Shown: positions 22,462 through 61,606 of the stretch, piece by piece | How positions within the stretch are numbered: the first letter of the stretch is position 1 | Layout of the letters: each line of letters starts with the position of its first letter | Assembly (NCBI GenBank): GCA_963745025.1 | Contig: CAVUWD010000016.1 | Location: 640,001-704,000 of the forward strand | From: an uncultured delta proteobacterium | Lineage (GTDB): Bacteria > Desulfobacterota > Binatia > JACPRU01 | Direction of reading: 5' to 3' | Length of the DNA stretch: 64,000 nt | Program-made: the position numbers and the translations under genes | Notes under the pieces: model-generated | The model's input: only the letters and a program-made list of their open reading frames with translations | What the model was told of the DNA's origin: nothing | The model's database searches: none

Positions 22462-22477
22462 AGCATGGTCCGTGCCA
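22462..22477 (-). promoter_or_regulatory. sigma54 -24/-12 promoter
   Basis: TGGCAC-GGACC-ATGCT on the minus strand, ~95 bp upstream of the crotonase start. Confidence 0.7.
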
Positions 22478-22633
22478 TGCGATCCCGTCTTGATCGGAGA
22501 GGCGGTTCGGGAGAGTTCCGCAAGCTCGGCAGGCGGTGCCGGCCCATGGCCTCGGCCACCCGTGCCGGGGCGATCTCGGCGAGGGAGACAACCTCGTCGA
22601 GCGCGCCACGGCTCAGCTTCGCTTCGCGATCGA

Positions 22634-22722
22634 GACGCCGCCGGAGAAGGCGACGAGAGGACCTCGCGCATCTCAAGCAGTGACCTCCGCAAGCGGTCGA
22701 GCTTCGTTTCTATGGGCGACAT
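22634..22722 (-). pseudogene. larE: LarE-like (PP-loop sulfur transferase) N-terminal stub
   Basis: MSPIETKLDRLRRSLLEMREVL, then after a 2-nt slip VAFSGGV, then unrelated sequence. This is the typical LarE start and PP-loop. Confidence 0.6.
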
Positions 22723-22734
22723 CGCACGCCGCCA

Positions 22735-23565
22735 CTAGCGACGCGCTTCACCACCGGAGAGGAGTCCCTTCTTGCGGAGGAACTTGACGACCAGCGCCGC
22801 GATGCGTTCCGGGGCCTCGAACATCGGATAGTGGCCGACCTGGTCGAGCACCTCCATCTCGCAGTCCGGCAGCTCGCGGGCCGTCGCCTGAACGAGCTCG
22901 ACCGGCACCCAGAAGTCCTCGCGCCCCACGACCAGCAGCACCGGGCAGCGCGCACCGCGGAGACGCCCGCGCACGTCGTGATTCGCCCACCCGGAAAGAT
23001 CGCCCGCCGCCGCGAGCTGGCTGCCGCGATGCTGCCAGCGGAGCTCCGTCACCCTCTCCTCGGGCACGCATCGGGCGAGGGAGGAGATGGCGGCGCGTTC
23101 CATCACGTCCTGCCATCCTGGCATCCACGACGGTCTCGACATCTCCACGGGGTTCGGGAACGTCGGCGTCCAAGCCGCTCCCTCCATCGGCACCGCGGCG
23201 AGCAGCCCGTCGGAATGGTTCGCGACGAGATCGATCGTGATGTCGCCGCCGATCGAGCAGCCGATGACGACGAAGCGCTGGTCGCAGACCGCTCGGCCGA
23301 ACTGGTACACGAACTCGGCGTGCTCGTGGATCGTCTGCGTCGGCCGCCAGCCGACCGGGTAGGAGCGCGAGTGTCCCGGCAGGTCGACCGCGATGGCCCT
23401 CATTCCGCTCTTCGCGAGAAGCGGAAGAAGATAGCGGTATTCGCGAGAGTCGGACCCGGCCGTGTGCACACACACGATCGGGATTCCCGTGCCGATCTCG
23501 TCGAAGAAGGTCCTCGTTCCGCCGACCGACACGTAGCGACCGGTGATCTCTTCGAGTGGTTCCAT
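22735..23565 (-). CDS. alpha/beta hydrolase (HTAG subfamily)
   Basis: CVHTAG, DLPGHSRS, nucleophile GCSIGG and VGHYPMFE motifs. GAGGAGG RBS. Confidence 0.88.
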   Translation of the reverse strand: MEPLEEITGRYVSVGGTRTFFDEIGTGIPIVCVHTAGSDSREYRYLLPLLAKSGMRAIAVDLPGHSRSYPVGWRPTQTIHEHAEFVYQFGRAVCDQRFVVIGCSIGGDITIDLVANHSDGLLAAVPMEGAAWTPTFPNPVEMSRPSWMPGWQDVMERAAISSLARCVPEERVTELRWQHRGSQLAAAGDLSGWANHDVRGRLRGARCPVLLVVGREDFWVPVELVQATARELPDCEMEVLDQVGHYPMFEAPERIAALVVKFLRKKGLLSGGEARR

Positions 23566-23593
23566 CTCTCGGCTCCTCCTCGTCCCGATGCGG

Positions 23594-24019
23594 CTACTTC
23601 GCGACTTGCGACACGCAGTCCGCGAGGTGGAAGAGCGCCTCGTAGATCCGCATCGCTTCCAGCAGGTTTCCCTCGATGGCGATCCGGGGAGGGGCCGCCC
23701 CGTTCGCGCTCGAGAGAGACGGGTCGTTCTCGAAGCGCCGCTGGCCGGGCATGATGAGATCGGCGAAGCGCCGCTCGCCGGAGACGAGTTCCTCCCACGC
23801 CTGGCGCGACCCGCGCAGCCGAAACGTCGAGCCGAAGGGCGGGATCGAATCGAGCGCCTCGACGATGCGGCCACGGTAGACCTTCAGCCAACACCTCGAC
23901 TCGTCGGCCTCGAGCAGGATCGACCCGTCGAACCAGCGCGTCTCCAGCGCGAACCCCTCGTGTCGGCTCAGCGCTTCTTGCAGTCGGTCCCGAAACCGCG
24001 TGCTGCCAAAATCGATCAT
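23594..24019 (-). CDS. hypothetical protein, SCP2-like fold suspected
   Basis: About 141 aa with ...CWLKVYRGRI...F.LRGSRQAWEEL...IEGNLLEAMR. Same position and pattern as 48044..48436. Confidence 0.65.
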   Translation of the reverse strand: MIDFGSTRFRDRLQEALSRHEGFALETRWFDGSILLEADESRCWLKVYRGRIVEALDSIPPFGSTFRLRGSRQAWEELVSGERRFADLIMPGQRRFENDPSLSSANGAAPPRIAIEGNLLEAMRIYEALFHLADCVSQVAK

Positions 24020-24199
24020 CGTGGCGGCCTCCTTTCCCGGGCCCCGGCGATCGGAACCCGTCGCCGGGCGCGGACTTCCGGAAGCACCGGCGCTCCGATG
24101 GAACACTTCCGGTTCCATGCGAGCTGTTGCGCCCATTCCTTCGTCCTTCGCGTGGCGAATCTCCTTGGACGATCCGGCAGACTCGTCCGCTTTAAGCCA

Positions 24200-24215
24200 A
24201 GCACGTGACATGCCA
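24200..24215 (-). promoter_or_regulatory. sigma54 -24/-12 promoter
   Basis: TGGCAT-GTCAC-GTGCT on the minus strand. Confidence 0.6.
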
Positions 24216-24256
24216 TCGACCGTTTCACGGTTGCTGCACCGAAAACCGATAAGGGC

Positions 24257-24292
24257 CGAGGCGATTTGCACCAATTGATGCGATCCGCGTCA
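24257..24292. promoter_or_regulatory. tandem candidate activator sites
   Basis: CGAGGCGATTTGCACCA (24257-24273) and the palindromic TGATGCGATCCGCGTCA (24276-24292), 41 bp from the minus-strand -24 box. Confidence 0.4.
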
Positions 24293-24463: not shown

Positions 24464-26387
24464 ATGATTCGCGGAGGCTACGCGCGCAACATTCTGCGAG
24501 TAGATTTGGGCACCGGCGAGATCAGAAAGGACGATCTCCCGGAGGAGAAGGTGCTGCGGCAGTACATAGGAGGCACGGGGCTCGCTCTTTATTACCTGCT
24601 CAAGGAGGCGCCGGCTGGCGCCAGCGCCACCGATCCTCGGACCCCGCTCATATTCATGACCGGTCCGCTGGCCGGGACCGCCGCCCCGAGCTCCAGCAAC
24701 TACGTCGTGGTCTCCTTTCACTACGAGACTCCATATGCCGCGGGAACGGGCCATTCACACGGGTTTTGGGCCGCTTACCTGAAGCATGCCGGGTATGAGG
24801 GGATCATCATTACCGGACGAGCCGCAGCGCCGGTGTATCTTTGGATCGATGACGGTGCGGTGCAGCTCAGGGATGCCGGCGCGGTATGGGGCAAAGACAC
24901 GCGCGAGACCGAGCGGCGGATCAAGGCGGAGCTGGGAGGAGAGCCGGAAAAGATCAGCGTAGCGTGCATCGGCCCGGCGGGGGAGGCTCTGCTTCCCGGT
25001 GCGATGATCAAGAACGACCGGAACCATGGGGCGGGCAAGGGCAGTCCCGGCGCGATCATGGGCTCGAAGAACCTCAAGGCGATCGCCGTGCGCGGCACCG
25101 GCACCGTGCCGATCGCCAAGCCGGACTGCATTTTTCGAGACCGCGACCCAGTGGGAGCAGAACCTCTTCATCACTCCGGAGGGGGGAGTGCCCCCAGTGC
25201 TCGCTCTCGTTCACAACGCGGGAGTCACTAGGGGTTACAACATCATTGGTGAGCTCTCGATGCTCGCCGGCAAGAACCTGACCGATCCCGAATGGGGCAA
25301 GGTGTACGGCCAGAATTACGTCGATGGCTGCGCCCGCTGGATCGTTACCGCCAGACCTTCTTATAACTGCAAGATCGAGTGCGCCTACGACGTCACGGTC
25401 ACGGATGGTCCCCTGCTCGGGCTCAAGGCGAGCCCGTGCGGTGGCGGTGAAAATACGGAGGGGGCCGCCGCCATGATCGGTGTGGAAGACCCCGGGGCGG
25501 CGCTGGCCATGACGGAGTTCTACGACGCGATGGGGCTCGAGTCCTCCACCGCCGGCTGCGTCCTCGCCATGGCCTTCGAGGCCTACAACAGAGGGATCAT
25601 CACCAAAGAAGACACGGGCGGCCTGGAGCTCAAGTGGGGGAATTACGAGGCGGCGATGGCCCTGATCGAGCAGATGTTGAAGAGGGAGAAGTTCGGAGCG
25701 GTATTGGCTCGGGGGCTCAAAGAGGCCGCCCGAGTCATCGGCAAAGGCGTCGACAAGTTCGTCGTCCACATCAAGGGCGGCGGGATCAATCTTCATGACT
25801 GGCGGCCGGTGTGGAGCGTTCTCTTCGGCGAGGTGATCGCCGGTGCGGGCGTGTGCTGGCAGGCGCCCGGAGTGGATGCGTGGTGCGGGGAGCCGGACCT
25901 GGGCTACCTCACCCACCCCCCGGGGACAGCGGACGACCTCCCCCATGCGCTGGAAAAGGTCGAGCAGGTGCGGCGGACGCAATTCAAGAAGCTGTGGGAG
26001 GATTGTCTGGGAATCTGCTGGTTCGCGGCCTGGGGTGTGCAGGACGTGACGAAGCTTGCCCCGAAGGCGCTGGCGGAAGCCGTCGGATGGGACGACTTCA
26101 CGACCGAGGAGGCCATGGCCGCCGGAGAGAGGGTCGTCAACCTGATGCGCGTCGTCTATGCGCAGCGAGGATTCAAGAAGGAGGACGAATTCGACGTTTC
26201 GCCGCGCCTGCTCGAGCCCCCCACGAGCGGCAGCGCGAAGGGAAAGTCGATCGCAGCGTTTTTGCCCGCCATGGTAGATGAATACTACCGACAGATGGGC
26301 TGGGAGGTGGCGACCGGCATGCCAACGCGGCCGGGCCTCGCCCGGCTCGGGCTCGAGGAGTATACGGCCAGCGTCGAGCGGCGCTGA
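24464..26387 (+). CDS. aldehyde:ferredoxin oxidoreductase (W/Mo-pterin AOR family), +1 frameshift near 25127
   Basis: N-part ILRVDL, LKHAGYEGIIITG, IGPAGE and GAIMGSKNLKAIAVRG. C-part Cys motifs, LKWGN and DEYYRQMGW. The frames join at CCG GAC T GCA TTT. Confidence 0.85.
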
Positions 26388-26477: not shown

Positions 26478-26897
26478 TCACGAGGCCGCTGCCGCGGATG
26501 TGCGGTGCTCCGCAGCCAGGCGCCGTACGGTCTCGACGATCTCCCGGGATGAAGCCCCTGCCCCGAAGACTGCCGCGACTCCCTTCCCGACGAGAAGCTC
26601 TTCGTCTGATCGAGTCAGAATCGAACCGCCGAGCACGAGGGGGATTCTCGCACCTCCTTCCCCCAGGCGGCGGAGCAGTTCGTCGACGGAGTAGCGGTAC
26701 TCCCAGGAGTGGCAGCTAACTCCGACCACATCGGCGCTCTCGTCGCGTGCCGAGGCGGCGATGGTCTCGGGTGAAGCGAACCGACCGAGGTAAATCACCT
26801 CCATCCCGGAGTTGCGCAGAATAGAGGCGGCGGCGAGCGCCCCGGTCTCGTGGCCGTCGAAGCCGAGGATCGCGATGAGAACGCGGGACGGCCTCAT
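26478..26897 (-). CDS. B12-binding small subunit of an acyl-CoA mutase
   Basis: GFDGHETG (DxHxxG), GMEVIYLG, ADVVGVS and LGG motifs. Overlaps the large-subunit stop. Confidence 0.9.
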   Translation of the reverse strand: MRPSRVLIAILGFDGHETGALAAASILRNSGMEVIYLGRFASPETIAASARDESADVVGVSCHSWEYRYSVDELLRRLGEGGARIPLVLGGSILTRSDEELLVGKGVAAVFGAGASSREIVETVRRLAAEHRTSAAAAS

Positions 26898-28531
26898 GCG
26901 CTGGCCCTCGCGTCGAGGGAGCCGCCGTCGAGGGGTGGCGTCATCGCTCCGAAGGGGTCGTAGGCCGCACCGTAGGCGAGGCGCAGCATTCCCGCGACCT
27001 CACCCAGCGTGGCCTCGGCCTCGAACGCCGCGATGATCGCGGGCATGAGGGACTGCTCCCTGTTCTTGCCGGCCTCGAGAAGCGCGCGTAACGCCCCGCC
27101 GAGCCGCCCCATGTCGCGCGACCGCTTGAACTCGCGGATCCGCTCTACGTGGTCCCAGCAGGGCTCGACCTTGGTTTCGGCAACCTCGCGCAGCAGCCGG
27201 TCCTCTTCCTCCGGCACGGAGAAGACGTTGACGCCGACCCTCGGAACGGTTCCGTCCTCGACTTCGCGGGCTCGCTCGACCATCGCCCGCTCGAGAAGGC
27301 TTCGGAAGAAGCCGCGCGCGGCGAGATCGACCGGATCGCCCATGGCCTCGATGCGCCCCACGGCCTCGCGGATCTTCCCCTCCATCTCGTTCGTCAGGCG
27401 CTCCACGTAGTACGAGCCGCCGAGCGGATCCACGACGCCGGTGACTCCGGTTTCGAGGCCGATGATCTGCTGCGTCCGCAGCGCGACGACGTGCGCCTCG
27501 TGGCTGGGCGGCCGGTAGGCCTCGTCGAACGTGGAGATCTCCATGGCCTGGACGCCCGCCATCGCCAGCGCCAGCGCCTGCGACGTGCCGCGCACCACGT
27601 TGTTGATCGGCTGCTGCGCGGTGAGGGCGCTGCCCGCCGTGTGGGCCGTGATGTTCACGGACCACGAACGCGGGTCCTTGGCCCCGAACTCCTCGCGCAT
27701 CATGCGCGCGAAGAATCTGCGCGTCGCGCGGATCTTGGCCACCTCCTCGAAGAAGTTCATGCGGCAGTTGACCAGGATGGCGATCCGCGGAGCGAACCGG
27801 TCGATGTCGAGGCCGCGCGCGAGCAGCCCGCGCACCACCTTGCGGATCTCGACGAATCCGAGCGCCATCTCCTCCACGGCGTCGGGCCCGCCGTCGCTTA
27901 CGAAGTACGTGTCCTCGAGGAAGGAGTGGAACCTGGGCATCTCGCGCGTGCAGAACTCGATCGAGTCGAGCGCGAGGCGAAGGCGCAGCTCGACGGGCAT
28001 GTGGACGGCGTAGCTGTAGTCCTCGCCATAGAGCGGCATTTGCAACACCGAGCCTCGCAGCTCCTCCAGCGCGACCCCGCGGGCGCGGGCGACGAGATAC
28101 ACGGCGGCCACGCCGAACCAGCCCTGGACCGAGTGCGAGAGGGTCACGCGGTCGATCGGGATGCCGTCGTAGAGCTCGAGAAAGTCCTGCCGGCGGCAGA
28201 GCGAAACCCCTTGGGTGCCGACTCCATTGTGGGCCATCGGGTGGTCGGGATCGAAGCATGCGAAGGTCGGCGCGTCGCCGATCACGTCGAGGCCGCTCGC
28301 CCCGCTGTCGATCAGCCTGCGAAACTGGGCATTGGACCGAGCCGGTGGTCCTTCCCCGGAAAGCTCGCGCAGGATCCAGCCGCGGCTGCGATCCAGGCTG
28401 GCCCGCCGGCCGCGCGTGAACGGATACGAACCGGGATCGCCGAGGTCGCCGGCATAGTCGACCTCCGACAGATCGGCGGGTGAATAAAACGATTTGGCGG
28501 AATTTTGGGACCGCACGGGGTCAACGCTCAT
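26894..28531 (-). CDS. methylmalonyl-CoA-mutase-family large subunit (divergent specificity)
   Basis: GDPGSYPFTRG, FFEEVAKIRATRR, LTAQQPINNVVR, ALRTQQII, DPLGGSYYVE and VGVN motifs. Confidence 0.9.
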   Translation of the reverse strand: MSVDPVRSQNSAKSFYSPADLSEVDYAGDLGDPGSYPFTRGRRASLDRSRGWILRELSGEGPPARSNAQFRRLIDSGASGLDVIGDAPTFACFDPDHPMAHNGVGTQGVSLCRRQDFLELYDGIPIDRVTLSHSVQGWFGVAAVYLVARARGVALEELRGSVLQMPLYGEDYSYAVHMPVELRLRLALDSIEFCTREMPRFHSFLEDTYFVSDGGPDAVEEMALGFVEIRKVVRGLLARGLDIDRFAPRIAILVNCRMNFFEEVAKIRATRRFFARMMREEFGAKDPRSWSVNITAHTAGSALTAQQPINNVVRGTSQALALAMAGVQAMEISTFDEAYRPPSHEAHVVALRTQQIIGLETGVTGVVDPLGGSYYVERLTNEMEGKIREAVGRIEAMGDPVDLAARGFFRSLLERAMVERAREVEDGTVPRVGVNVFSVPEEEDRLLREVAETKVEPCWDHVERIREFKRSRDMGRLGGALRALLEAGKNREQSLMPAIIAAFEAEATLGEVAGMLRLAYGAAYDPFGAMTPPLDGGSLDARASA

Positions 28532-28660
28532 TGGGGGATCTCCCTGGCGACTCCAATGGGAGTCACATGCATCACATTTTGATTCCGACGGCGACAGAAG
28601 CAAACGGTATCTTCAGGCCGTGTCTTCCAAACTAACGTCTCGTTCACACCCGGTTTCCCC

Positions 28661-29182
28661 CTATTTTTTCCTCTGCATCTTGCCCACGTCCCAGCTGATG
28701 ATCTTGTCCGGAACAATCCTGATCGCAACACGGTCCGGGGTGTACAGGGTGTTGAAATAATCCTCCTGCTCTTTCGGGGAAAACTTGCCCCAGTATTTGT
28801 CCACGTATCCTCGGCAAACTTTGACAACGATCTCCTTGTTCTCGATGATTTCCGCCCGTCCCTTGATCGTCAGGGCCTGCTCCTTGGCAAGCGTGGTCTC
28901 CTCCCGTGAAACGGAGGCGGACGTGCGGTTGTCTCTCCGGTAGGAGATCTCCTTGACCCGGCCCTTGACCGTGCTGGTGTAAACATCATCCCCCAGCATG
29001 CAGTAGAACATGGGAGTTACCATAGGCCAGCCGTTCTTGGTGAGGTGTGTGAGGTACAGCACTTTGCCCGTGTGCAGGAGATCTTTGATATCCTCCGCGC
29101 TCATCCACCACTCGGCCTGTTCATGTACTTTCTTCCACGAATCAACTGTCTGTCCTGGGATGTCAGCCGCTCTTTCTGCCAT
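28661..29182 (-). CDS. pyridoxamine-5'-phosphate-oxidase-like split-barrel flavin/F420-binding protein
   Basis: LTHLTKNGWPMVTPMFY, K...RRDNR.S, IKGRAEI and RVAIRIVPDKIISWD motifs. AGGAG RBS. AT-richer than neighbours. Confidence 0.8.
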   Translation of the reverse strand: MAERAADIPGQTVDSWKKVHEQAEWWMSAEDIKDLLHTGKVLYLTHLTKNGWPMVTPMFYCMLGDDVYTSTVKGRVKEISYRRDNRTSASVSREETTLAKEQALTIKGRAEIIENKEIVVKVCRGYVDKYWGKFSPKEQEDYFNTLYTPDRVAIRIVPDKIISWDVGKMQRKK

Positions 29183-29346: not shown

Positions 29347-29381
29347 GTTCGCGGATTGCGACAATGTGGCGAGATGCTACG
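29347..29381. promoter_or_regulatory. tandem candidate activator sites
   Basis: GTTCGCGGATTGCGACA plus TGTGGCGAGATGCTACG (29365-29381), 41 bp before the -24 box at 29423. Confidence 0.55.
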
Positions 29382-35622: not shown

Positions 35623-35759
35623 ATTGGTTCTGCTTCAGAAGACAAAGGACTCAGATCAAGCCTAATTTCAAGTGAGGTCATCGTCGCGATTTGCCACGGC
35701 GGAAAAATACATCGTCGTTCTCTGCAACAGGAACGTGCATGGCAATAAGGAGATTCGTC

Positions 35760-39505: not shown

Positions 39506-39522
39506 TGTGGCGATACGCCACA
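39506..39522. promoter_or_regulatory. perfect palindrome TGTGGCG-ATA-CGCCACA, candidate activator site
   Basis: Perfect 7-3-7 inverted repeat 42 bp from the -24 box at 39463. Confidence 0.7.
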
Positions 39523-41724: not shown

Positions 41725-41782
41725 CTGACAAAATTCGGCACTTGGGTTGCGGGCGTCAGCCCGCGTTACGGAGGCTTCTCAC

Positions 41783-48032: not shown

Positions 48033-48043
48033 CGTGAACCTCC

Positions 48044-48436: not shown

Positions 48437-48504
48437 ATCGACCTCCCTCTTGACGGAAGCCGCAGCTCGCCTGCCGCGCGCTTCCGGATCGGTCCTGGCT
48501 TCCG

Positions 48505-48825: not shown

Positions 48826-48853
48826 CTGGTATCTCCTTATTTACGGTTACGGG

Positions 48854-49870: not shown

Positions 49871-49893
49871 GCTCGGATGCTCTGTCCTACCGC

Positions 49894-51327: not shown

Positions 51328-51353
51328 GAGCTTTTCCTCCTCCGTGCTCTTCG

Positions 51354-52701: not shown

Positions 52702-55092
52702 TCACTCAGCCAGAGCCCGGACGGTCGGTCGCTGGGCCTCAGGGGGTTCCTCGAGAGGCGACGCTTCGGTGGTCATGAAGCGCGGCCGCACGATCGAAAA
52801 GATCGCCGGAACTAGCGTGATGGCGGCGAGCCAGTGTGTCAGCATCAGAAGCGCGAGCAACATCGCCATCTCCGCCGAGAATCGCAAGCTGGACAAGAAG
52901 TACCACGGCATCACGCCCCCGACCAGCGTCGTCGCCGTGAACGTCACCGCCATCCCGGAGGTCGCGACGGCGCGTTTGATGGCCATGTCTGCATCCCCAA
53001 GGCGCCCGTACTCCCGCTTGATGCGGTCCACGACGTACAAGATGTAGTCTACGCCGATTCCCATGCCGACGGCGGTCACCGGCAGCGTGTTGATGTTCAT
53101 GCCGATGCCTTTCAGTCCGATGTATAGGAAGCTCACGACTCCGGCCGCGATGAGTGTCGTCATCACCATGTTGCCAGCCACGAACGACTGATAGCTCAGG
53201 CTCACCAACACGTAGATGGCGACGATGATGAGGATGGTGTTGACCCGATCGGAATGGGCGATTTCGTCGTTCAGTGCGGCGGTCGTCCCGATGGTCCCGC
53301 CACCGAGCCGGAAGTTGAGCCCATCCACAGGGTGCGTCGCGATGAAGGCCTTGGCACGTGCCACCGCGTTCTCGATCGTCACCCCGCGCGCGTCCTTGTA
53401 GAAAATGACCAGCTGGCCATCTTTTGCGTCGAAGTCCATGTACTCGAGGATCACGCCGGGCACCGGGGCTCCGGCCTCGTACATGAAGATCATGTTTCCC
53501 ACGCCCGCGGCATCCGGCGGAATCACCTGCCACTTGGGATCGTTGTAGTGATACAGGCGGTTGACGGACCTGACTAGCGAGGGCGCATCGCGCGTCCCCC
53601 CAGCCTCGGGTTGCTCCAACATGTAACGGCGGAAACTCTCGAGCGTCTCGAGGACGACAGGCTCCTTCAACACGTTCGAGCGACCGCCTTCGAGGTAGAT
53701 GACGAACTGGTTCGCGCCGGCAAAGTTGGCGTTGATGTTGCGGGTGGAGATGTTGAAATGCGAGTTCGGCCACAGCAGCGGCGAGCCGGCCTCCGTCTCT
53801 CCGATCTGAACGTGCACCGCCTGCTGAAGGCCGAGCGCCACGATTACCGCCGCCGTCACGACGATGACCCACCGGTAGGTCCGATGCGTACAGAATTCCC
53901 CCACGCCATGCAGAAAGGAGACCATCCACCGCGGGACGTAGTGCTTGGTCACATGCGGAGTTGGCAGGGTATTCAAGAGCAGCGGCATCAACATGAGAAT
54001 CGTGAAGATATTCGAAAAGCCCCAAAAGGAGCCGAAGAAAGCCAGCTTGCGAATTAGGGGGATCGTCGCCACGCTGAGCACCAGGATCCCGGCAGCATCG
54101 GCCAGGACCCCGATGACGCCGGGAATGACGAGCTCGGTAAACGCTCGCTCTATGGCGAGATGGCGGTCGCCGCCCGTGTTCTCGAGCTCCTCGAAGTAAC
54201 GCTCGATCATCTGCACGGCGTGACTCGCGGCGCGCGCCGAGATGAGAAGGGGGATCACCAGAATGAGCGGGTCGAGGTTGTATCCGAGGACCGCCGTGAA
54301 ACCGAGGCCCCAGATCGCCTGCACGCAAGTGCCGATGACCGGCAGGATCCAACCGTAAAGGCGCCGGAAGTAAACCACCAGGGTGACGAACACGAAGAGG
54401 CCGGTCGCGGTGAAGATCAGAGCGAGCTCGCCCGTGTGGAACCATACCCACCCCTTGAGAACGGGCTCGCCAGAGGCGTACAAGACGGTGTTCTCGTCCT
54501 CGACCTTCTGCTTGATCTTCATGATCTCGCGGTGGATGTTGCGGTAGTCGAGGCGCTCCTCGTTGAAGCCGGCGAGGATCAGTGCGGACTTCCCGTCCGC
54601 CGCGATGTATTTCCCGTAGACGATGTCGTTGTTGAACATTGCCTCCTTGAGCCGCAGGAGTTCCTTCGGGTCGGGTGTAATGTCCTCGGGGAGGACGGGC
54701 CGTGAGACGATCAGACCCCCCGAGCCAGTCTCGAGCCTGCGGATCTTCACGTGGGCGATCGAGGCGACCTGATAATGGTTCACGCCGTCGATCTGGTCGA
54801 CCGCCTCGGTCACGTAGCGGATCTTCTGCAGGGTCTGCGCATTGAAGATGTCGCCTTGCTTGACCGCGACCGCGAGCACCACCACGTTCGCACCACCGAA
54901 AGTCTGGCGGAAATGGTTGTAGGCCTTGATGTAGGGGTGTCCTTGCGGAAGCAGGTCGGCGAACTGGCTGTACATCTCGACCTTGCGCGCGTGGTAGCCG
55001 AAGAAGATGGTGATCATGAGGATCGCGCTGAGCGAGATCCAGGAATGCCGCAGGACCCACCGGGCAGCCGCTACGAGAAATCGTTCAAGCAC
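52702..55092 (-). CDS. MMPL/RND-family transporter
   Basis: Two repeats of a periplasmic domain plus TM bundle. LLPQGHPY, FGGAN, ISARAASHAVQ and GMGIGVDY motifs. Confidence 0.9.
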   Translation of the reverse strand: MLERFLVAAARWVLRHSWISLSAILMITIFFGYHARKVEMYSQFADLLPQGHPYIKAYNHFRQTFGGANVVVLAVAVKQGDIFNAQTLQKIRYVTEAVDQIDGVNHYQVASIAHVKIRRLETGSGGLIVSRPVLPEDITPDPKELLRLKEAMFNNDIVYGKYIAADGKSALILAGFNEERLDYRNIHREIMKIKQKVEDENTVLYASGEPVLKGWVWFHTGELALIFTATGLFVFVTLVVYFRRLYGWILPVIGTCVQAIWGLGFTAVLGYNLDPLILVIPLLISARAASHAVQMIERYFEELENTGGDRHLAIERAFTELVIPGVIGVLADAAGILVLSVATIPLIRKLAFFGSFWGFSNIFTILMLMPLLLNTLPTPHVTKHYVPRWMVSFLHGVGEFCTHRTYRWVIVVTAAVIVALGLQQAVHVQIGETEAGSPLLWPNSHFNISTRNINANFAGANQFVIYLEGGRSNVLKEPVVLETLESFRRYMLEQPEAGGTRDAPSLVRSVNRLYHYNDPKWQVIPPDAAGVGNMIFMYEAGAPVPGVILEYMDFDAKDGQLVIFYKDARGVTIENAVARAKAFIATHPVDGLNFRLGGGTIGTTAALNDEIAHSDRVNTILIIVAIYVLVSLSYQSFVAGNMVMTTLIAAGVVSFLYIGLKGIGMNINTLPVTAVGMGIGVDYILYVVDRIKREYGRLGDADMAIKRAVATSGMAVTFTATTLVGGVMPWYFLSSLRFSAEMAMLLALLMLTHWLAAITLVPAIFSIVRPRFMTTEASPLEEPPEAQRPTVRALAE

Positions 55093-55118
55093 GGGTCACC
55101 TCGGCTCGAGCCGGATCT

Positions 55119-56306
55119 TCAGGAAGAGCTCCCGGGCAAGGCCGCCGCGAGACGCTCGCGCGGCAGGCTTTCCCAGGTTTCTCCGCGGTCGCGGGAGAGG
55201 AGCACCGCGGCCTTGCCGCCGACGGCGACGCCGAGCGCCCCATCCGCCGAGAAATCCGCGCCGCGGATCCACGTGAAGAGTCTGTGGGAGATCTCCTCGT
55301 CGGCAACCCAGCCCTCTGCGCGATGGTGCACGACCGTACCGAGCACTCCGGTGGCGATCAGGCCGCCGATCGGCGTTGGGAGGACCTTGAAGAGAGTGTT
55401 CCGCGTGCCGGCGCGCGCCGCCGTCCAGTGGTGGCCGCGATCGACGGTCGTCAGCACGAAGCCGCCGGCGCCCACCACGTAGCCCGCGTCGGGCGTGACG
55501 AAGGCGGCGTCGAAGAGGTAGAGGTCTTCCTTGCTGAGCGGAGGGATGCCTACGCGCAGCGCGACCTCCTCGGTGACATCCTCGACGTAGGGAGGCAGCC
55601 CCGTGATCTCTTCGTCCCGCTGCCACGTCTCGCCCCCGTCCCCGGTGTGCAGTATCGTCCCGAACTCCCCTACGACCCATCCCTCCTGGTCGTCGACGAA
55701 CGTCACCGCGTTCAGGGTCACGTCCTTGCTGAGGGACCGGTCCTCCCAGGTGACGCCGTCGTCCGTCGAGCGCAGCAGCATCCCCACCGGCCCCACGGCC
55801 CAGATCCGGCGGGGATCGCGGCTCCGCGCGAAGCCAAGGACGTTCTCCTTCACGCTGCCCGGGGCCACCGGCGACCAAGATCGCCCGCCGTCGGTGGTGC
55901 GGAGGATGAGGCCGCCGCGCCCGCCGATCACGCCGGTCGACGGGTCGCGGAAGCTCACGCAGAAGAGCGGCTCGCGGACGGCAGGTGCGCGGAGCTCGGC
56001 CTTGCGGCCCCGCTCGCCGAGCAGGATCGCGGCCCCGTACGAGCCGACGATCCACACGTGGTCAGCGTCGACGACGTCGACCGCGTAGTAGTCCTCCTCC
56101 GCGGGTAGGATCCCGCCTTCCACGGCGGTACGGCTTGATGCCGACGGCGGCGCCTCGGCGGCGAAATGCAACTTGGCGTAGGTGGTCCCGACCAGTAGCG
56201 CGACGACGGCGAGCCCGGTAGGTCCGCGCGGAGACTTGCGTGCCCTGCCGGCCGCGCGTGAGTCGCGCGGCCGGGTTTCGAGAGGTGGTCGATTTGGAGT
56301 GGACAC
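55119..56306 (-). CDS. YCF48-like BNR/beta-propeller protein
   Basis: Repeats of G..G.IL.T.DGG.(S/T)W and an N-terminal TM/signal segment. Confidence 0.88.
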   Translation of the reverse strand: MSTPNRPPLETRPRDSRAAGRARKSPRGPTGLAVVALLVGTTYAKLHFAAEAPPSASSRTAVEGGILPAEEDYYAVDVVDADHVWIVGSYGAAILLGERGRKAELRAPAVREPLFCVSFRDPSTGVIGGRGGLILRTTDGGRSWSPVAPGSVKENVLGFARSRDPRRIWAVGPVGMLLRSTDDGVTWEDRSLSKDVTLNAVTFVDDQEGWVVGEFGTILHTGDGGETWQRDEEITGLPPYVEDVTEEVALRVGIPPLSKEDLYLFDAAFVTPDAGYVVGAGGFVLTTVDRGHHWTAARAGTRNTLFKVLPTPIGGLIATGVLGTVVHHRAEGWVADEEISHRLFTWIRGADFSADGALGVAVGGKAAVLLSRDRGETWESLPRERLAAALPGSSS

Positions 56307-56329
56307 TTCTCGTGCTTTAGGGCGAGCTG

Positions 56330-58375
56330 CTAGAACCGGTACCGCGCCCTTGCCCAGAACTCGTCCATCTGGTTGCGCTCGGAGCCGCCGGCCTGCATGT
56401 GACCGATGCCGAAGCCTGTCTCGGTGAACGGAATGTGGTTCAGGGGATTGGCGGCCAGCTGGGCCGCTGGCGTGTTAGTGGTGAAGAGGGAGAAGGGACC
56501 GATGTCGTGCACTTGGCGCGAGCCGAGGAACCCGGTGATTCCGAGCTGCAGGGACATGTGGTTGTTGACCAGGTACTCGAGGTTGCCGCCGAGGGTGGCG
56601 TCCTTGCCGGTCAGGCCGTACGCGCCGAAGATGAGGGCGACGAGCTGATCCTGCATATACTGGGTCTGCGCGAAAGACGTGAAGATGAAGTTGTTGTTGT
56701 CTCCGCCCGTGTACCCGAAGCGCCCGGACTTCACGTCGGGCACGTGGGTCCCAAAGACCTGGGCGCTCAGGAAGAAGCTCCGCAGAGGATTCAGCGCGCG
56801 GATCATCGTCGGCCGATCGACGCCCATCACCCAGCGCACGATGTTCGAGCTGTTCAGCCAGTTCTTCTGCGTCGTGTCGGTGACCAGGGCGTTCGCCGTC
56901 CACGAGTTCTCACTGCGGATGACGAGGCCCGTGTTCGGCTCGAACCAGTCGAACGAGATTCCGAGTGTGTTCTGCTTCCGATACCGGGCCGTGAGCTCGC
57001 CGGTCAGGGCGCACATGTCTATGTACCGGGCCTGCTTGAGCGCGTTGGGCTCGTTGGCGACGATAGGTGCGGCCGCCATGTTGATCGCGTTCGGATTGAC
57101 GTGGACCCGCACGGGAAGCGGAACGCCCGTGGCGGCGGGATTCGTCAGGGTCGTGTGCCCGCCGGCCCCGTCCACGCCCGGCGCAGGCAGCACCTCGTTG
57201 CAGCCCGGGAGGTCCAGGACGTGAAACTGGCTCCAGCCGAAGGCGGGCACGTCCTGGAAGGCGAACCAATCCGTCAGCTGAACGCGGACGTTGCCGAACA
57301 GCCACGCCCACTTCGAGCCGACGCCCGTGTTCTTGAGGTTCCAGTCCGGCCTCCGGTCGAAGGTGAGCGCCGCGTTGACCGAGTTGACGGGCTCGTTCGA
57401 GAAGATGGCATTGCCGAAGTCGTTGGAGCCGAACGCGAAGGAGCCGAGCTCGCGGCCGAAGCCGATCGCCCAGGGCTGGCCTCCGTTCCCGAACCCCAGC
57501 GAAGTGTAGCGGTCGAACACCCAGACCGCGCTGCCTGCGAGCTGTTTGAACACGCCGACGTCGCCGAAGCGGTGCTCGAACAGCGCCGACCACAGCGGGA
57601 CCCGCGTGTCGTCGAACGGGTCGATGAAGAAGTGATCGGCGAAGTTGACCGGGTTGACGACGTCCTGGAGACGGAAGAAGTCCGCCTTGCCCCACACGTG
57701 CTGCTGCTTCCCCAGCCGGAGCCAGTTCAGCCCGCCGGCGGCGTCGAAGTACATGTCGACGTAGGTCTCGCGGATCGGGTAGTAGAGGTCCGCGTTGGTT
57801 GCATGGAGCCTTCCCCAACGCAGGTCGCTCCCGCTCGCGTCGAGGTCGATCCACGCGCCCTTTTGCGTCTGGGGGTTGAGGAATCTTACGTCCGGGCTTC
57901 TCGGGCTCGGTATGCGGAGGTTGCTCTTCGCGTAGATCTCCTCGAAGTCGTGAGTATTGTAGCCGAATGCGTTGAGGAGATCGGCGGTGCCACCAACGCC
58001 AGGAGTGGGCGGTACGCCGCGTCCCGATGTCGCGCGTCCCGGATCGCCGTAGCGTCCGCTCACGTCGTAGATCGACTCGTACTCGGGCCTGAGCTCCATG
58101 AAGTACTCGAGGCGGTTGAAAAAACCGCCGTCTGGGATCGGACCGCTGAACTGCAGGCTCGCCCGGTACCGAGAGGAGGCGGCGTGATAGTCATCCTTGA
58201 ACGTGTCGGAGCGGAGGATCGTGAAGTTGTCCAGGTACCCGTGTGTGTGGGTCTGGAAGTAGTCCAACACTCCCTGCGCACGGACGACACTGGGTGAGAG
58301 AAGCAGTAACCAGACCGCAGCGATCCGCGCGGCTGTCGATGCTCCTCTCGCAAGCGACTTTACGCGGTGGGCCAT
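56330..58375 (-). CDS. DUF1302-like outer-membrane beta-barrel protein
   Basis: Signal peptide, IRETYVD, LRLGKQQHVWGKADFFRLQDVVNP and a C-terminal aromatic RYRF. Confidence 0.8.
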   Translation of the reverse strand: MAHRVKSLARGASTAARIAAVWLLLLSPSVVRAQGVLDYFQTHTHGYLDNFTILRSDTFKDDYHAASSRYRASLQFSGPIPDGGFFNRLEYFMELRPEYESIYDVSGRYGDPGRATSGRGVPPTPGVGGTADLLNAFGYNTHDFEEIYAKSNLRIPSPRSPDVRFLNPQTQKGAWIDLDASGSDLRWGRLHATNADLYYPIRETYVDMYFDAAGGLNWLRLGKQQHVWGKADFFRLQDVVNPVNFADHFFIDPFDDTRVPLWSALFEHRFGDVGVFKQLAGSAVWVFDRYTSLGFGNGGQPWAIGFGRELGSFAFGSNDFGNAIFSNEPVNSVNAALTFDRRPDWNLKNTGVGSKWAWLFGNVRVQLTDWFAFQDVPAFGWSQFHVLDLPGCNEVLPAPGVDGAGGHTTLTNPAATGVPLPVRVHVNPNAINMAAAPIVANEPNALKQARYIDMCALTGELTARYRKQNTLGISFDWFEPNTGLVIRSENSWTANALVTDTTQKNWLNSSNIVRWVMGVDRPTMIRALNPLRSFFLSAQVFGTHVPDVKSGRFGYTGGDNNNFIFTSFAQTQYMQDQLVALIFGAYGLTGKDATLGGNLEYLVNNHMSLQLGITGFLGSRQVHDIGPFSLFTTNTPAAQLAANPLNHIPFTETGFGIGHMQAGGSERNQMDEFWARARYRF

Positions 58376-58425
58376 TTCGGGTCCCTCCTTCCCATCTAGC
58401 ACCGAGTCATCCGGGTATATTGAAC

Positions 58426-58472: not shown

Positions 58473-58485
58473 CAATTCATTGATT
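58473..58485 (-). promoter_or_regulatory. IHF-binding site
   Basis: AATCAATGAATTG matches WATCAANNNNTTR, lies in an AT tract, and sits between the activator sites and the -24 box. Confidence 0.65.
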
Positions 58486-58492: not shown

Positions 58493-58527
58493 TGCGGCAG
58501 GATGCAACGGCGTGGAAGATTGCCACA
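58493..58527. promoter_or_regulatory. tandem candidate activator sites
   Basis: TGCGGCAGGATGCAACG (58493-58509) and CGTGGAAGATTGCCACA (58511-58527). Confidence 0.6.
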
Positions 58528-58550: not shown

Positions 58551-60557
58551 TTACTCTGGCCGGCCATTACCGGATGATCTGAAACGGCGAAGCCTCCGAT
58601 AAATCGTTGAGCGGTCGATGCTGAGCTGTCGCGCCGCTTCCGAGATATTCCCGCCGTGCGCTTCGACGGAGCGGCGGATCAGGTCGTCCTCGATCGTGTG
58701 CAGTGAGCACTCTGGTAACGGGCTTACCAATTCCGGCCCGTCACGGAGCGTCGTCGGCAGGTCCTCGACCGTGACCACGTCGTCGTCGACGAGGGCCACT
58801 AAGCGGGCGACCACGTTACGCAGCTCGCGCACGTTGCCCGGCCAAGAGTATCTCAGCAACAAATCCTCGATCTCGGGCGTCAGGCGCAGCGCGGTTCGCC
58901 CGCTCTGCTGGCACATCGTCTCGATGAACGAGCGGGTGAGCTCGAGAATGTCGGTGCCCCGCGTCCGCAGGGGAGGAAGCTCGATCTTGATCACGTCGAG
59001 CCGATAGAAGAGGTCCGAGCGGAATCCCCCCGTCGCCAGCGCATGGACCAGGTCACGGTTCGTGGCCGCGACGATGCGCACGTCGATTGGCCGCGGCCGG
59101 CTGCCTCCCACGCGGAACACGGTGCCCTCTTCGAGGACCCGCAGCAGCTTCGCTTGGACGTCGAGCGGAAGCTCGCCGACCTCGTCCAGGAAGAGCGTTC
59201 CCCCGTCAGCAAGTTCGAAGCGGCCCGGCTTGCCCTCCTTGCGCGCGCCCGTGAACGCCCCGGGCTCGTAGCCGAACAGCTCCGACTCGATGAGCTCTCG
59301 GGCCATGGCCGCGCAGTTGACGCACACGAGAGGCTTGCTCGCACGGCGGCTGCTGCGGTGAATGGCCGCCGCGACGAGTTCCTTCCCGGTCCCCGTAGCG
59401 CCGGTGATCAGCACCGATTCGTCCGAGGCGGCCGCTCGTGCCGCGATGCGAAGCGTCCTGCGAAACTCGGGATCGCGACCGATCAGGTGCTCGAACGCGG
59501 GGCCGAGCTTGGGATCCCCGGCCGCCGAGGTGGAGAAGACGCCGTGACGCTCGAGAACGACGACGAGACCGGCGACCCGGTTTCCCGCCTGCACGCTGTT
59601 CACGACCACGACTCGAGCCTCTGCGACCGGCAGGTGGACGCGGACCTCCTGCTTCAACGAGGGGCTCTTCAGAAACTCGGCGATCGCCTGTTCCCGGATC
59701 CGCAGGCAGCCATCCGCACCGAGCCGCTTCTCCACTTCCCGCCAGCGGCCGTTCGCGGCGACGAGGTGGCCCGCGGAATCGAAAGCGGCAATGGCGTCGA
59801 GCGGCCAGCGGCTCTCGGCGCGATCATACGCATCCGACACCCGCTCCCTCCAGTACCGTCGGGATTCCGTCAGCAGATACTCGATCGAGTGGCCGACCGA
59901 GACGGCGAGCGGCATCCGGTCTGCCGTCGCGCGCTCGGCGAGTCCCGCGACAGTGATGACCCCGAGCACCTCCGTGCTCAGTGGGTCTCTGACGGGAGCG
60001 CCGTAGCAGACCCATTCGTGCCAGCCCTTACAGAAGTGCTCGGCTCCGAACACCACGACCGGCGTCCGGGAGGAGAGCGCCGTCCCCGCTCCGTTCGGAC
60101 CGACGGCTTCCTCCGCCCATACTCCTCCCGGTTGCGCGTTGATCCGGCAGAGAGCGTCTTCCACCTCACGGTCGCCCACCACGTGCAGGATTCGTCCGCC
60201 CGCATCCGAGAGCAGGAGCACGTGCCCGCCACCGGCAAGCACGTCCTTCATGTCGTCGAACACGCGCCGCCCCGCCAGCGCGAAGTCGTCTTCCTCGAGA
60301 ACGCGACTGAGCTCGTCTGTCGCACGATCGACCGGCGCTCGCTCGAGAAAGGGATCGATGCCGCGCTGGAGCGCGGCTCGCCAGCAATCGAGAGTGAAGG
60401 CGCGAACGGGGAGCGATTCGGGGACGACGCCGTCCGCAACGAAGCGCTCCCATCCTTCCCGAAGGAGCTTACAGATTGCGGAGGCCTCGGCCGCCGGAGG
60501 CACTCTGAATGTCGGGAATTGCTTCAGCACATCACGAACGCTTGCGTTCGCCATCAT
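58551..60557 (-). CDS. GAF-domain sigma54-dependent activator (AcoR-like, Fis HTH)
   Basis: GAF region W.E..VGPNGAG...EHFC...W.C.GAP, Walker A GATGTGKE, ESELFG, GAFTGA, LFLDE, WPGNVREL and a C-terminal HTH. Confidence 0.95.
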   Translation of the reverse strand: MMANASVRDVLKQFPTFRVPPAAEASAICKLLREGWERFVADGVVPESLPVRAFTLDCWRAALQRGIDPFLERAPVDRATDELSRVLEEDDFALAGRRVFDDMKDVLAGGGHVLLLSDAGGRILHVVGDREVEDALCRINAQPGGVWAEEAVGPNGAGTALSSRTPVVVFGAEHFCKGWHEWVCYGAPVRDPLSTEVLGVITVAGLAERATADRMPLAVSVGHSIEYLLTESRRYWRERVSDAYDRAESRWPLDAIAAFDSAGHLVAANGRWREVEKRLGADGCLRIREQAIAEFLKSPSLKQEVRVHLPVAEARVVVVNSVQAGNRVAGLVVVLERHGVFSTSAAGDPKLGPAFEHLIGRDPEFRRTLRIAARAAASDESVLITGATGTGKELVAAAIHRSSRRASKPLVCVNCAAMARELIESELFGYEPGAFTGARKEGKPGRFELADGGTLFLDEVGELPLDVQAKLLRVLEEGTVFRVGGSRPRPIDVRIVAATNRDLVHALATGGFRSDLFYRLDVIKIELPPLRTRGTDILELTRSFIETMCQQSGRTALRLTPEIEDLLLRYSWPGNVRELRNVVARLVALVDDDVVTVEDLPTTLRDGPELVSPLPECSLHTIEDDLIRRSVEAHGGNISEAARQLSIDRSTIYRRLRRFRSSGNGRPE

Positions 60558-60617
60558 GCTTGTATCCCGGACTTACGTCCGGAGGTGAAATCAAAATCAG
60601 TGAGCATCTGTCAAGGA

Positions 60618-60651
60618 TGTGGCGGATGCCACGATTCGGCAAAATGCGGAA
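60618..60651. promoter_or_regulatory. candidate activator sites in the divergent regulator/lipoprotein region
   Basis: TGTGGCGGATGCCACG (60618-60633) plus TTCGGCAAAATGCGGAA. Confidence 0.55.
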
Positions 60652-60673
60652 TCTGGCCTGCGAGCTCTCTCGA

Positions 60674-60689
60674 TGGCACTCACCCTGCA
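60674..60689 (+). promoter_or_regulatory. sigma54 -24/-12 promoter
   Basis: TGGCAC-TCACC-CTGCA upstream of the lipoprotein gene. Confidence 0.6.
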
Positions 60690-60702
60690 TCCAATAGGGA
60701 GT

Positions 60703-61479
60703 ATGCGTCCTCACCTCGCGGCAATGAGCGCCCGCTTGGTCATCATGCTCGCCCTGGCTTCGTGCGCGAGCCCCCTCGCCGATTACAGCGGCTACGTGGC
60801 CCCTCGCGCGTACGCGATCGACTGCGAGGCGGGGTGGCAGCACGCGGGGACCGCGCTCAGGACGAACGGCTTCGTGATCGTCGAGGTGCGGCGAGAGGCG
60901 TCGGGAGGGGTCGTGGTGGGGAAGCGGGGCTCCGAGACGATGACGATGGCGGTGTCTTGCGAGGCGGACGGTGTCCACGTGACGCCGTCCGGCCTCACCC
61001 CTTTCGCGCGGAACGGGATGCTGATCGCCTTCGAGCGCGTCATGGAGACGGCCCGCATCGAGCGGCCGCCCATGGGCATGGAGGTGAGCGCCGAACTCAT
61101 CACCGGGCCGGAGAGCGCGCTCTACTTTTCGAGCGGCCTCGGCGCCTCCTCGACGGTCGCCGTTCGCTTCCGCATCGCCAACGGCGGCTCCCGGCCCCTG
61201 AGGCTCCTCACGCAGAACATCCGGCTGCGCACGCCATCCGGAGCGTGGGGAACCGCCCTCGGCCGCGACGAGATCCAGCGGCGCCTGCCGGGGCTCGCGA
61301 CAGAGATCCTGCCTCGTTTGCTGACTTCGGCGGTTCTCGAGACGGGGAAGCAGGCCGAGGGCTTCCTGATCTTTCCTGAAGATCGCTACGAGGGCGCCGT
61401 AATCGGGCTGATCGACGTCGAGACTGAAGAGCCCGAGGAATTCGACGTTACTTTTCATCTTGATAATGTCGGCTCATAG
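60703..61479 (+). CDS. hypothetical lipoprotein
   Basis: Hydrophobic signal with lipobox LASC. Alternative start at 60724. Confidence 0.7.
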   Translation: MRPHLAAMSARLVIMLALASCASPLADYSGYVAPRAYAIDCEAGWQHAGTALRTNGFVIVEVRREASGGVVVGKRGSETMTMAVSCEADGVHVTPSGLTPFARNGMLIAFERVMETARIERPPMGMEVSAELITGPESALYFSSGLGASSTVAVRFRIANGGSRPLRLLTQNIRLRTPSGAWGTALGRDEIQRRLPGLATEILPRLLTSAVLETGKQAEGFLIFPEDRYEGAVIGLIDVETEEPEEFDVTFHLDNVGS

Positions 61480-61510
61480 GAATCCGTCCTCGAATGCCGA
61501 ATCATAATTA

Positions 61511-61547
61511 AGTGGCGTTTCGCAACAGTCTGTGGCTCCTGGCCACA
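61511..61547. promoter_or_regulatory. tandem candidate activator sites
   Basis: AGTGGCGTTTCGCAACA (61511-61527) and TGTGGCTCCTGGCCACA (61531-61547), 43 bp before the -24 box. Confidence 0.65.
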
Positions 61548-61590
61548 AAAAGAAATCATCGCCCATTTGTTCTATGGACACTTTTGTACA

Positions 61591-61606
61591 TGGCATACAT
61601 CGTGCG
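61591..61606 (+). promoter_or_regulatory. sigma54 -24/-12 promoter
   Basis: TGGCAT-ACATC-GTGCG upstream of the LLM gene. Confidence 0.6.

Follow-up and report, generated by a model that had tools for sequence, protein, structure and literature searches.

A conserved palindromic dyad at sigma-54 promoters of a catabolic gene cluster in an uncultured delta proteobacterium, and the AcoR/DhaR-type activator that probably binds it

In this study, we analyzed a stretch of 64,000 nucleotides from an uncultured delta proteobacterium (contig CAVUWD010000016.1, positions 640,001 to 704,000; hereafter the window). The data support a dense set of sigma-54 promoters in this region and a recurring palindrome with the core YGTnGCR-N3-YGCnACR, which is a genuine, conserved element associated with these promoters. 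Judged from sequence, this dyad is probably the upstream activating sequence of the activator of the AcoR/DhaR type encoded within the cluster at 58551-60557. The decisive comparison is with L001, the one true orthologous locus found by scanning genome contigs with the activator protein, which comes from a groundwater metagenome-assembled genome labelled Deltaproteobacteria. An original prediction, made from the window alone, had proposed that one activator coordinates about 40 kb of genes from eleven promoters. An upstream site, either strong or of a 16-bp variant form, is present at only seven promoters in five intergenic regions, and direct sequence support thus covers units that would amount to roughly 22-25 kb of genes.

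Promoters were scanned for as GG and GC fixed exactly 10 bp apart, with at most two mismatches to the sigma-54 consensus TGGCAC-N5-TTGC. The whole window yields 37 matches, 15 of which fall in the intergenic 13.1% of the DNA (binomial p = 3e-5), and 13 of these 15 face a gene start no more than 350 bp away. Two genes recognized later (encoding DUF6285 and HbpS-like proteins) shrink the intergenic fraction slightly, so that the enrichment is only strengthened. All eleven predicted GG-N10-GC promoters are in place, with coordinates correct within 1 bp, at most two mismatches and both GG and GC intact, and additional candidates were found at 29293(-), 41736(+), 4614(-) and 4684(-). The units at 32.0-35.3 kb and 43.9-46.6 kb have no sigma-54-like promoter at their head, nor does the first 19 kb contain one beyond the weak matches at 4614 and 4684. 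The promoters and the genes that they would drive are given below.

P22463, 22463..22477, minus strand: 1 mismatch; heads genes for a BadI/MenB-like crotonase, APH, DUF6285 and a crotonase (19201-22367); orthologue of P4155 in L001.
P24201, 24201..24215, minus strand: 2 mismatches; a 148-aa protein (23594-24040) and an alpha/beta hydrolase (22735-~23565).
P24376, 24376..24390, plus strand: 1 mismatch; aldehyde:ferredoxin oxidoreductase (AOR; 24464-26387, frameshifted); orthologue of P4332 in L001.
P29227, 29227..29241, minus strand: 2 mismatches; a PNPOx-like protein and the large and B12-binding subunits of an acyl-CoA mutase (26478-29182).
P29293, 29293..29307, minus strand: 1 mismatch; alternative promoter for the 26478-29182 operon; nearest site centre at -74.
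P29423, 29423..29437, plus strand: 1 mismatch; fused family-III CoA-transferase (29496-31916); nearest site centre at -76.
P35607, 35607..35621, plus strand: 2 mismatches; cupin/EutQ-like and SnoaL-like genes (35739-36709).
P39449, 39449..39463, minus strand: 2 mismatches; luciferase-like oxidoreductase and aldehyde dehydrogenase (36781-39390); site centre at -77.
P39696, 39696..39710, plus strand: 1 mismatch; CoA-transferase and MaoC hydratase (39729-41562); sole site at -208.
P41736 (extra candidate), 41736..41750, plus strand: 1 mismatch; two luciferase-like genes (~41783-43821).
P58427, 58427..58441, minus strand: 1 mismatch; AmeABCD-like transporter operon 47184-58402, possibly reaching 43868; orthologue of P10099 in L001.
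P60674, 60674..60688, plus strand: 1 mismatch; putative lipoprotein (60706-61479), divergent from the activator gene.
P61591, 61591..61605, plus strand: 2 mismatches; luciferase-like protein (61722-62948) and acetyl-CoA hydrolase/transferase-like protein (63118 onward); orthologue of P2334 in L001.

The gene pair behind P24201 was delimited by comparison with positions 6281-7582 of L001. P29227 lies 45 bp from its start codon, and P29293 mirrors P29423 about the tandem sites 29347/29365. From its sequence, the gene behind P39696 likely starts at the second ATG; P41736 is followed by a ribosome-binding site (RBS) and a GTG codon and has no dyad nearby. The P58427 operon has the order DUF1302, BNR, HAE3-RND, HEAT, DUF1329, luciferase-like, muconolactone-isomerase-like and hydrolase, and the lipoprotein encoded at 60706-61479 has a signal-peptide-like N-terminus. 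Directly behind the -12 element of P22463 and extending over the predicted start, 22430-22461 holds two copies (100% identical) of a 16-nt unit in tandem; this arrangement could be the operator of another regulator or a slippage duplication.

The dyad had originally been written as TGTGGCG-N3-CGCCACA, which represents the ideal form of a looser core. Among 26 half-sites, G2 is kept in 25, T3 in 23, G5 in 26 and C6 in 24, and the 3-nt spacer is A/T-rich. The exact word GTnGC-N5-GCnAC occurs five times in the 64 kb, each time in an intergenic region with sigma-54 promoters. The sites are listed below without strand; ranks refer to a weight matrix constructed only from the five sites of L001 and scored over 63,984 positions of the window.

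39506..39522: perfect 17-bp palindrome, candidate activator site; no mismatches, rank 1; at -77 of P39449(-) and -208 of P39696(+).
29347..29381: tandem pair of a weak (29347-29363, rank 15) and a strong site (29365-29381, rank 2), 18 bp apart.
58493..58527: tandem pair of a weak (58493-58509, rank 21) and a strong site (58511-58527, rank 4), upstream of the DUF1302 operon promoter.
61511..61547: tandem pair of 61511-61527 (rank 5) and 61531-61547 (rank 7), two mismatches each, 20 bp apart.
60618..60651: 16-bp variant palindrome (60618-60633) with a weak 17-bp partner (60635-60651, score 7.5).
35682..35698: strong site absent from the original prediction; rank 3, exact core match; centre at +57, downstream of P35607(+).
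24257..24273: weak site; five mismatches, score 7.8, rank 33; at -76 of P24201(-) and -137 of P24376(+).

Five of the palindromes first proposed are strong sites (39506, 29365, 58511, 61511 and 61531), whereas those at 29347, 58493 and 24257 turn out to be weak and the one at 60618 is a 16-bp variant. The latter (GTGGC-N4-GCCAC) lies between the activator gene and P60674(+) with its centre at -74.5, in register with the other sites; as one base pair fewer separates its half-sites, it does not pass the 17-bp matrix (rank 579). A tandem arrangement is borne out for 29347/29365, 58493/58511 and 61511/61531, with spacings of 18-20 bp. The first of these pairs is placed between divergent promoters, 29365 at -76 of P29423(+) and 29347 at -74 of P29293(-); the centres of 58511 and 58493 are at -86 and -104 of P58427; those of 61511 and 61531 are at -98 and -78 of P61591, with counterparts in L001 at 2401/2420. 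For four of the seven strong sites, a partner with a score of 7.5 or higher is present 17-21 bp away, where chance would give 0.5% per site (binomial p = 3e-8). The strong site at 35682 sits in the leader of the cupin-like gene. A further matrix match (score 13.0) at 60510-60526, within the first 50 bp of the activator coding sequence and at -182 of P60674, may represent a third site or have arisen by chance.

The five best matches of the L001-only matrix in the window are 39506, 29365, 35682, 58511 and 61511, all intergenic and beside sigma-54 promoters. At a score of 14 or more there are five matches, compared to 0.35 expected from 100 Markov simulations of the whole window (maximum 3) and 0.07 from 500 simulations of intergenic composition (maximum 3). 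In the reverse test, which is not fully independent, a matrix from seven window sites places the five L001 sites as the top five of ~17,900 positions. Four other activator loci (L002-L005, 54 kb together) match the activator only in its AAA+ and helix-turn-helix (HTH) part, at 43-47% identity, and were therefore used as negative controls; these unrelated loci contain one match scoring at least 14, in a probable coding region. The first 19 kb of the window, where matrix scores all stay below 11 and no dyad is found, serves as an internal negative control. Separately, we counted exact dyads (4- and 5-mers, spacers of 0-12) in the 1,593 bp upstream of the eleven promoters; only GTGG-N7-CCAC reached three matches, these being all three of its copies in the window, and the signal is suggestive but weak once ~16,000 tests are corrected for.

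On sequence grounds, the decisive evidence for the dyad comes from L001, which was compared over 17.9 kb. Its activator is 78% identical to that of the window, with an identical HTH recognition region. L001 is collinear with the window at 50.6-61.4, 21.5-26.4 and 63.1-64.0 kb, in a different order and orientation (blastn). It has no counterpart of the luciferase-like gene 61722-62948, which in the window is inserted before the CoA-hydrolase/transferase-like gene, nor, within its 17.9 kb, of the 23.5 kb between AOR and DUF1329 (26.4-49.9 kb). The unit of the 148-aa gene and the hydrolase has, compared to L001, changed its orientation and now stands between the crotonase and AOR genes. From this alignment, the window cluster appears as a rearranged, expanded version of a compact core.

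Promoter orthology covers four of the eleven promoters, namely the pairs P22463/P4155, P24376/P4332, P58427/P10099 and P61591/P2334. L001 carries a perfect palindrome between the divergent P4155 (crotonase) and P4332 (AOR), and tandem pairs upstream of P2334 (CoA-hydrolase/transferase-like gene) and P10099 (DUF1302 operon). Alignments of orthologous intergenic regions show a ~40-bp block over the tandem sites, together with the -24/-12 elements, conserved within diverged flanks. Conservation of the motif upstream of orthologues, which the original prediction had put forward as a check, is thus observed at orthologous sigma-54 promoters of L001. In the window, dyads flank the activator gene on both sides; in L001, they lie no more than 8 kb away from it. 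The inverted hydrolase unit is inserted where the L001 orthologues P4155 and P4332 share the perfect palindrome, and the corresponding position in the window, at 24257 upstream of AOR, looks disrupted.

The spacing between dyads and promoters follows a regular pattern. At five promoters, the gap between the nearest site and the -24 box measures 40-51 bp, which agrees with the 41-51 bp given earlier; in L001 it is 52-84 bp. Counted from the predicted transcription start, the centres of the nearest sites are at -77, -74.5, -78, -86 and -76 in the window; for L001 the values are -87, -119, -96 and -97, orthologous sites being 9-11 bp farther out. These centres differ by roughly whole helical turns (Rayleigh R 0.82 at 10.5 bp, Monte Carlo p = 0.0024, nine promoters, tested post hoc), and no other period from 5 to 20 bp fits better than 10.5 bp. 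We also compared the window with the known consensus for integration host factor (IHF).

58473..58485, minus strand: IHF-consensus match (WATCAANNNNTTR) between the tandem sites and P58427.

It is the only exact IHF match in the window, with 0.25 expected. The IHF-like sequence predicted at 58473 is present, yet it is not conserved: the orthologous spacer in L001 is GC-rich and lacks it.

The description of the sites as unusually close to their promoters was overstated. As far as the accessible text of each source goes, activator sites are placed 80-150 bp upstream of the -12/-24 sequence in one account (PMC6755734) and at 100-250 bp in a survey of Clostridiales (PMC6615313), while in Desulfovibrio vulgaris Hildenborough the closest site is within 100 nt for the largest share of sigma-54 promoters (PMC4641369). 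The nearest-site centres of the window, at -74.5 to -86, are nearer than the first of these ranges, but given the D. vulgaris result the spacing is at the short end of the known range and not outside it, and the sites of L001 are farther out.

The candidate binding protein is encoded next to two of the dyad-bearing promoters.

58551..60557, minus strand: enhancer-binding protein of the AcoR/DhaR group, 668 aa; PF00158, PF25601 (AAA lid) and PF02954.

It has an N-terminal sensor, an AAA+ sigma-54 interaction domain (PF00158, E = 1.7e-67 with Pfam) and a C-terminal Fis-type HTH (HTH_8, PF02954, residues 620-659). An intact GAFTGA loop and the Walker motifs GTGKE and LFLDEV are visible in the translation. 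Open reading frames (ORFs) were picked by third-position GC bias, and 84 of them were scanned with Pfam and NCBIfam; among these, the activator is the sole PF00158 protein and the sole recognizable DNA-binding regulator. The NCBIfam DhaR model aligns over residues 90-660 with 305.6 bits, far below its cut-off of 551, so that the activator is no DhaR equivalog; other NCBIfam models cover only the AAA+/HTH part, all under their cut-offs. Residues 95-336 match the sensor structure of E. coli DhaR (4LRX; phmmer, E = 2.2e-5), whereas no Pfam family, including GAF, was detected in residues 1-350 at E up to 1. Its homologues appear in source records as 'regulator of acetoin/glycerol metabolism', and Pfam GAF is present in more distant ones. 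The earlier label 'GAF/AcoR-like' is consequently a fair one for the group, because of the 4LRX match, the near full-length DhaR alignment and the homologues with their names and GAF domains, although it designates no specific equivalog.

Eight homologues share 72-95% identity across the sensor region, in a clade known only from metagenomes of which none is functionally characterized; further homologues in public data reach 50% and 44% identity. Against plasmids, tblastn gave at best 35% identity for the sensor domain and 66% for the HTH. A scan for sigma-70 promoters around the activator gene returned no promoter-like site. The rpoN gene is absent from the window, and an activator bearing GAFTGA would imply sigma-54 only indirectly.

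We infer the following mechanism. Dimers of the Fis-type HTH would bind the dyads, usually a strong site together with a weak partner 18-20 bp away. On receipt of a small-molecule signal by the N-terminal GAF/PAS-like sensor, the AAA+ domains would assemble and contact the sigma-54 polymerase 40-85 bp downstream by short-range looping on one face of the helix, where an IHF-like bend may help at one promoter. At least seven promoters would be opened in this way: P29293/P29227, P29423, P39449, probably P39696, P58427, P60674 and P61591. They would drive the operon for an AmeABCD-like outer-membrane/RND transporter and enzymes for CoA-activated substrates, probably alicyclic or terpenoid-like. 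This hydrophobic substrate is a guess from gene content, made because the AmeABCD-like cassette occurs together with a BadI-like hydrolase, luciferase-like oxygenases and CoA-transferases. That the motif is the operator of this activator is well supported by their linkage in both genomes and by the identical HTH, with binding itself as a presumed step.

Several other explanations have to be weighed against this proposal. The palindromes might be chance or structural elements, such as REP-like repeats or terminator hairpins, without a role in activation. Short palindromes are indeed frequent in high-GC genomes, a 7-bp hairpin could form from the perfect copy, and the literal consensus with up to three mismatches is not above chance (nine matches vs 5.75 expected, with 6 of 100 shuffles reaching nine). 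With up to two mismatches, however, it gives three matches vs 0.48 expected (one of 100 shuffles reaches three), so that an excess over chance holds at this threshold and for the matrix in simulations, but not for the looser literal search. The enrichment, the confinement to promoter-bearing intergenic DNA and the conservation across genomes make a chance or structural origin very improbable. Moreover, the variation among sites preserves the half-site letters (G2, T3, G5 and C6 in 23-26 of 26) and not base-pairing, the sites lie upstream of promoters and not at gene ends, and an Rfam scan of the window gave no match. Alternatively, the dyad may be genuine but bound by a protein encoded outside the window, either a paralogous enhancer-binding protein whose HTH is similar or an unrelated repressor or activator, while the neighbouring activator uses a different, unrecognized site. 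Only 64 kb of the genome is visible, homologues of the activator at 50% and 44% identity exist, and four sigma-54 promoters of the window have no good dyad, which makes at least one further input plausible. Related lineages can encode dozens of such activators, with 37 in D. vulgaris Hildenborough according to the accessible part of PMC4641369. We nevertheless consider an outside binder unlikely: the dyad stays with the activator gene in both genomes although gene blocks have been rearranged, the HTH is identical where the dyad is identical, the sites keep to one helical phase upstream of sigma-54 promoters, as an enhancer-binding protein requires, and the 84 scanned ORFs include no other regulator.

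It is quite possible, if somewhat short of an even chance, that several activators share the region. The neighbouring activator would then run a conserved core (the transporter operon, the lipoprotein, the CoA-transferase-like gene and perhaps the 29-kb and 39-kb units), while the dyad-less promoters at 22463, 24201, 24376, 35607 and 41736 answer to others; such a division of labour refines our proposal rather than opposing it. Enhancers can act over kilobases, as known for NtrC, which counts against the need for additional activators. When the DNA upstream of the dyad-poor promoters was searched for another common motif or dyad, likewise only GC-rich words of low information emerged, and the L001 orthologues of P22463 and P24376 share a perfect dyad, so that loss or decay in the window is an alternative. 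In favour of several activators, the best upstream scores at the dyad-less promoters are only 4.5-7.8 (4.5 at P22463), and 23 D. vulgaris operons with sigma-54 promoters had no predicted activator site in the portion of PMC4641369 consulted.

A number of observations also weigh against our assignment. Four of the eleven promoters (22463, 24201, 24376 and 35607) have no upstream site scoring 8 or more, with P24201 having a weak site and P22463, P24376 and P35607 no good one. The half-site spacing differs at 60618, and the sole site of P39696, at -208, is out of phase. The site at 35682 is downstream of its promoter, although the consulted part of the D. vulgaris study reports sites 40-70 bp downstream of promoters as well (PMC4641369). 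Besides the result for the literal consensus at three mismatches, the two matrix tests are linked, since the L001 sites were first found with the window consensus. In the phasing test, five of the nine distances cluster at 74.5-78. Finally, the assignment of the activator builds on adjacency and a single comparator genome, and rpoN and any paralogous activators lie outside the examined 64 kb. Taken together, a standard enhancer system, in which the neighbouring activator acts through the dyad, is the most economical reading and an ordinary example of a textbook class of mechanisms.

How far would this regulon reach? The idea of one activator for ~40 kb and all eleven promoters goes beyond the seven promoters with direct support. 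At the remaining promoters, sites may have been lost, distant sites may be used, or other activators may act. The most far-reaching version would have a single one-component AcoR/DhaR-type activator directly firing at least 11 sigma-54 promoters over ~40 kb by means of a compact enhancer of fixed geometry, with the proximal dyad at about -76 or whole turns farther and mostly without IHF. The regulon would have grown from about four promoters, the L001 arrangement, to 11-13 by capture of catabolic operons with new promoter-and-dyad modules. We regard this version as rather doubtful. If true, an uncultured lineage would possess a modular catabolic regulon of unusual size, and this regulon would lend itself, as a natural system, to studies on the spread of enhancer-promoter modules.

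The gene content of the window, which has a G+C content of ~65%, fits a catabolic cluster. Between ~19 and 64 kb, Pfam and NCBIfam identify catabolic enzyme genes: numerous luciferase-like (flavin/F420) oxidoreductases, family-III CoA-transferases, crotonases (one BadI/MenB-like), a MaoC hydratase, an acyl-CoA mutase with its B12 subunit, AOR, hydrolases and an aldehyde dehydrogenase. In the transporter operon, DUF1302, BNR/Ycf48-like, HAE3/MMPL-type RND and DUF1329 proteins are encoded together with a HEAT-repeat protein, which makes it an AmeABCD-like cassette by composition, with a transport function that is predicted only. An HbpS/GlcG-like gene (46717-47340, minus strand), found in a second round along with a second DUF6285 gene (11495-11878, minus strand), occupies most of an apparent 594-bp gap, so that the P58427 operon may extend to ~43.9 kb. 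The first 19 kb (1-19000) holds beta-oxidation and steroid-side-chain-like genes, including ACAD, pairs of APH and DUF6285, a thiolase-like gene with a ChsH2-type OB-fold gene, SnoaL-like and luciferase-like genes, and a 5-oxoprolinase-like LamB/YcsF gene.

Two genes are broken relative to L001. The AOR gene (24464-26387) is divided into the overlapping frames 24464-25231 and 25026-26387, with the break near residue 220 of what is a single 632-aa ORF in L001; the split reflects either a pseudogene or an error of assembly. The HEAT-repeat gene (51354-52701) is likewise in two frames, one ORF matching residues 2-183 and the other residues 213-447 of the L001 protein. Additionally, a 49-aa ORF with a good RBS (35262-35411, minus strand) resembles by eye the N-terminal end of a luciferase-like oxidoreductase; located upstream of the aminotransferase operon, it is apparently what is left of a gene, in line with past rearrangements. 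A 36-nt direct repeat with internal dyad symmetry (83% identical copies at 36777-36812 and 41614-41649) is present at gene ends, with one copy ~90-120 bp upstream of the candidate promoter P41736.

In summary, this work offers a candidate operator, YGTnGCR-N3-YGCnACR, and a target list for an uncharacterized clade of AcoR/DhaR-like activators. Narrow literature searches on half-site words, which yielded eukaryotic papers only, and on AcoR and upstream activating sequences returned no earlier description of the dyad. With the dyad, regulons can be predicted for related genomes, and an AmeABCD-like transporter becomes linked to specific enzymes of CoA-dependent and flavin/F420 type. A biosensor may be built on it after discovery of the inducer. 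Growth and decay of a sigma-54 regulon during the rearrangement of gene blocks are illustrated as well, by the phased short-range geometry and by the comparison with L001.

The concept itself follows the established paradigm of enhancer-binding proteins. Classical sigma-54 enhancers consist of tandem 17-bp dyads, as for NtrC at glnAp2 and for NifA with its TGT-N10-ACA sites. With these systems, the window shares a 7-N3-7 dyad and, under the proposed mechanism, would share its reading by a Fis-type HTH dimer, two adjacent sites nucleating an AAA+ oligomer, dependence on the helix face at short range and perhaps an optional IHF bend. It differs in its half-site, TGTGGCG instead of TGCACCA, in its activator, which would be a one-component protein of GAF/PAS type and not a response regulator, and in the position of the nearest site, at ~-76 compared to the classical -100 to -140. 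With the AcoR/DhaR group, the activator has in common the order of sensor, AAA+ and HTH_8 and a sensor matching residues 56-293 of DhaR (4LRX), whereas its predicted targets are not acetoin or dihydroxyacetone genes.

Comparison with published regulons and transporters is limited to the accessible parts of the sources. D. vulgaris likewise has many local regulons with palindromic sites and some sigma-54 promoters without a site (PMC4641369), but here up to 11-13 sigma-54 promoters in ~40 kb surround a single visible activator, and the dyad of the window is not found in the consulted part of that study. For the transporter genes, a link of DUF1302/DUF1329 genes to a LuxR-type regulator is described in P. 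putida (bioRxiv 10.1101/2020.07.04.188060). The monoterpene island of Castellaniella defragrans contains AmeABCD (PMC6394551), for which the consulted text does not describe sigma-54 regulation and from which the window differs in gene order and by an added HEAT-repeat gene. In both cases, however, DUF1302, DUF1329/LolA-like, BNR/Ycf48-like and HAE3-type RND proteins are encoded in one operon, and this operon is embedded among genes for the catabolism of hydrophobic substrates (PMC6394551).

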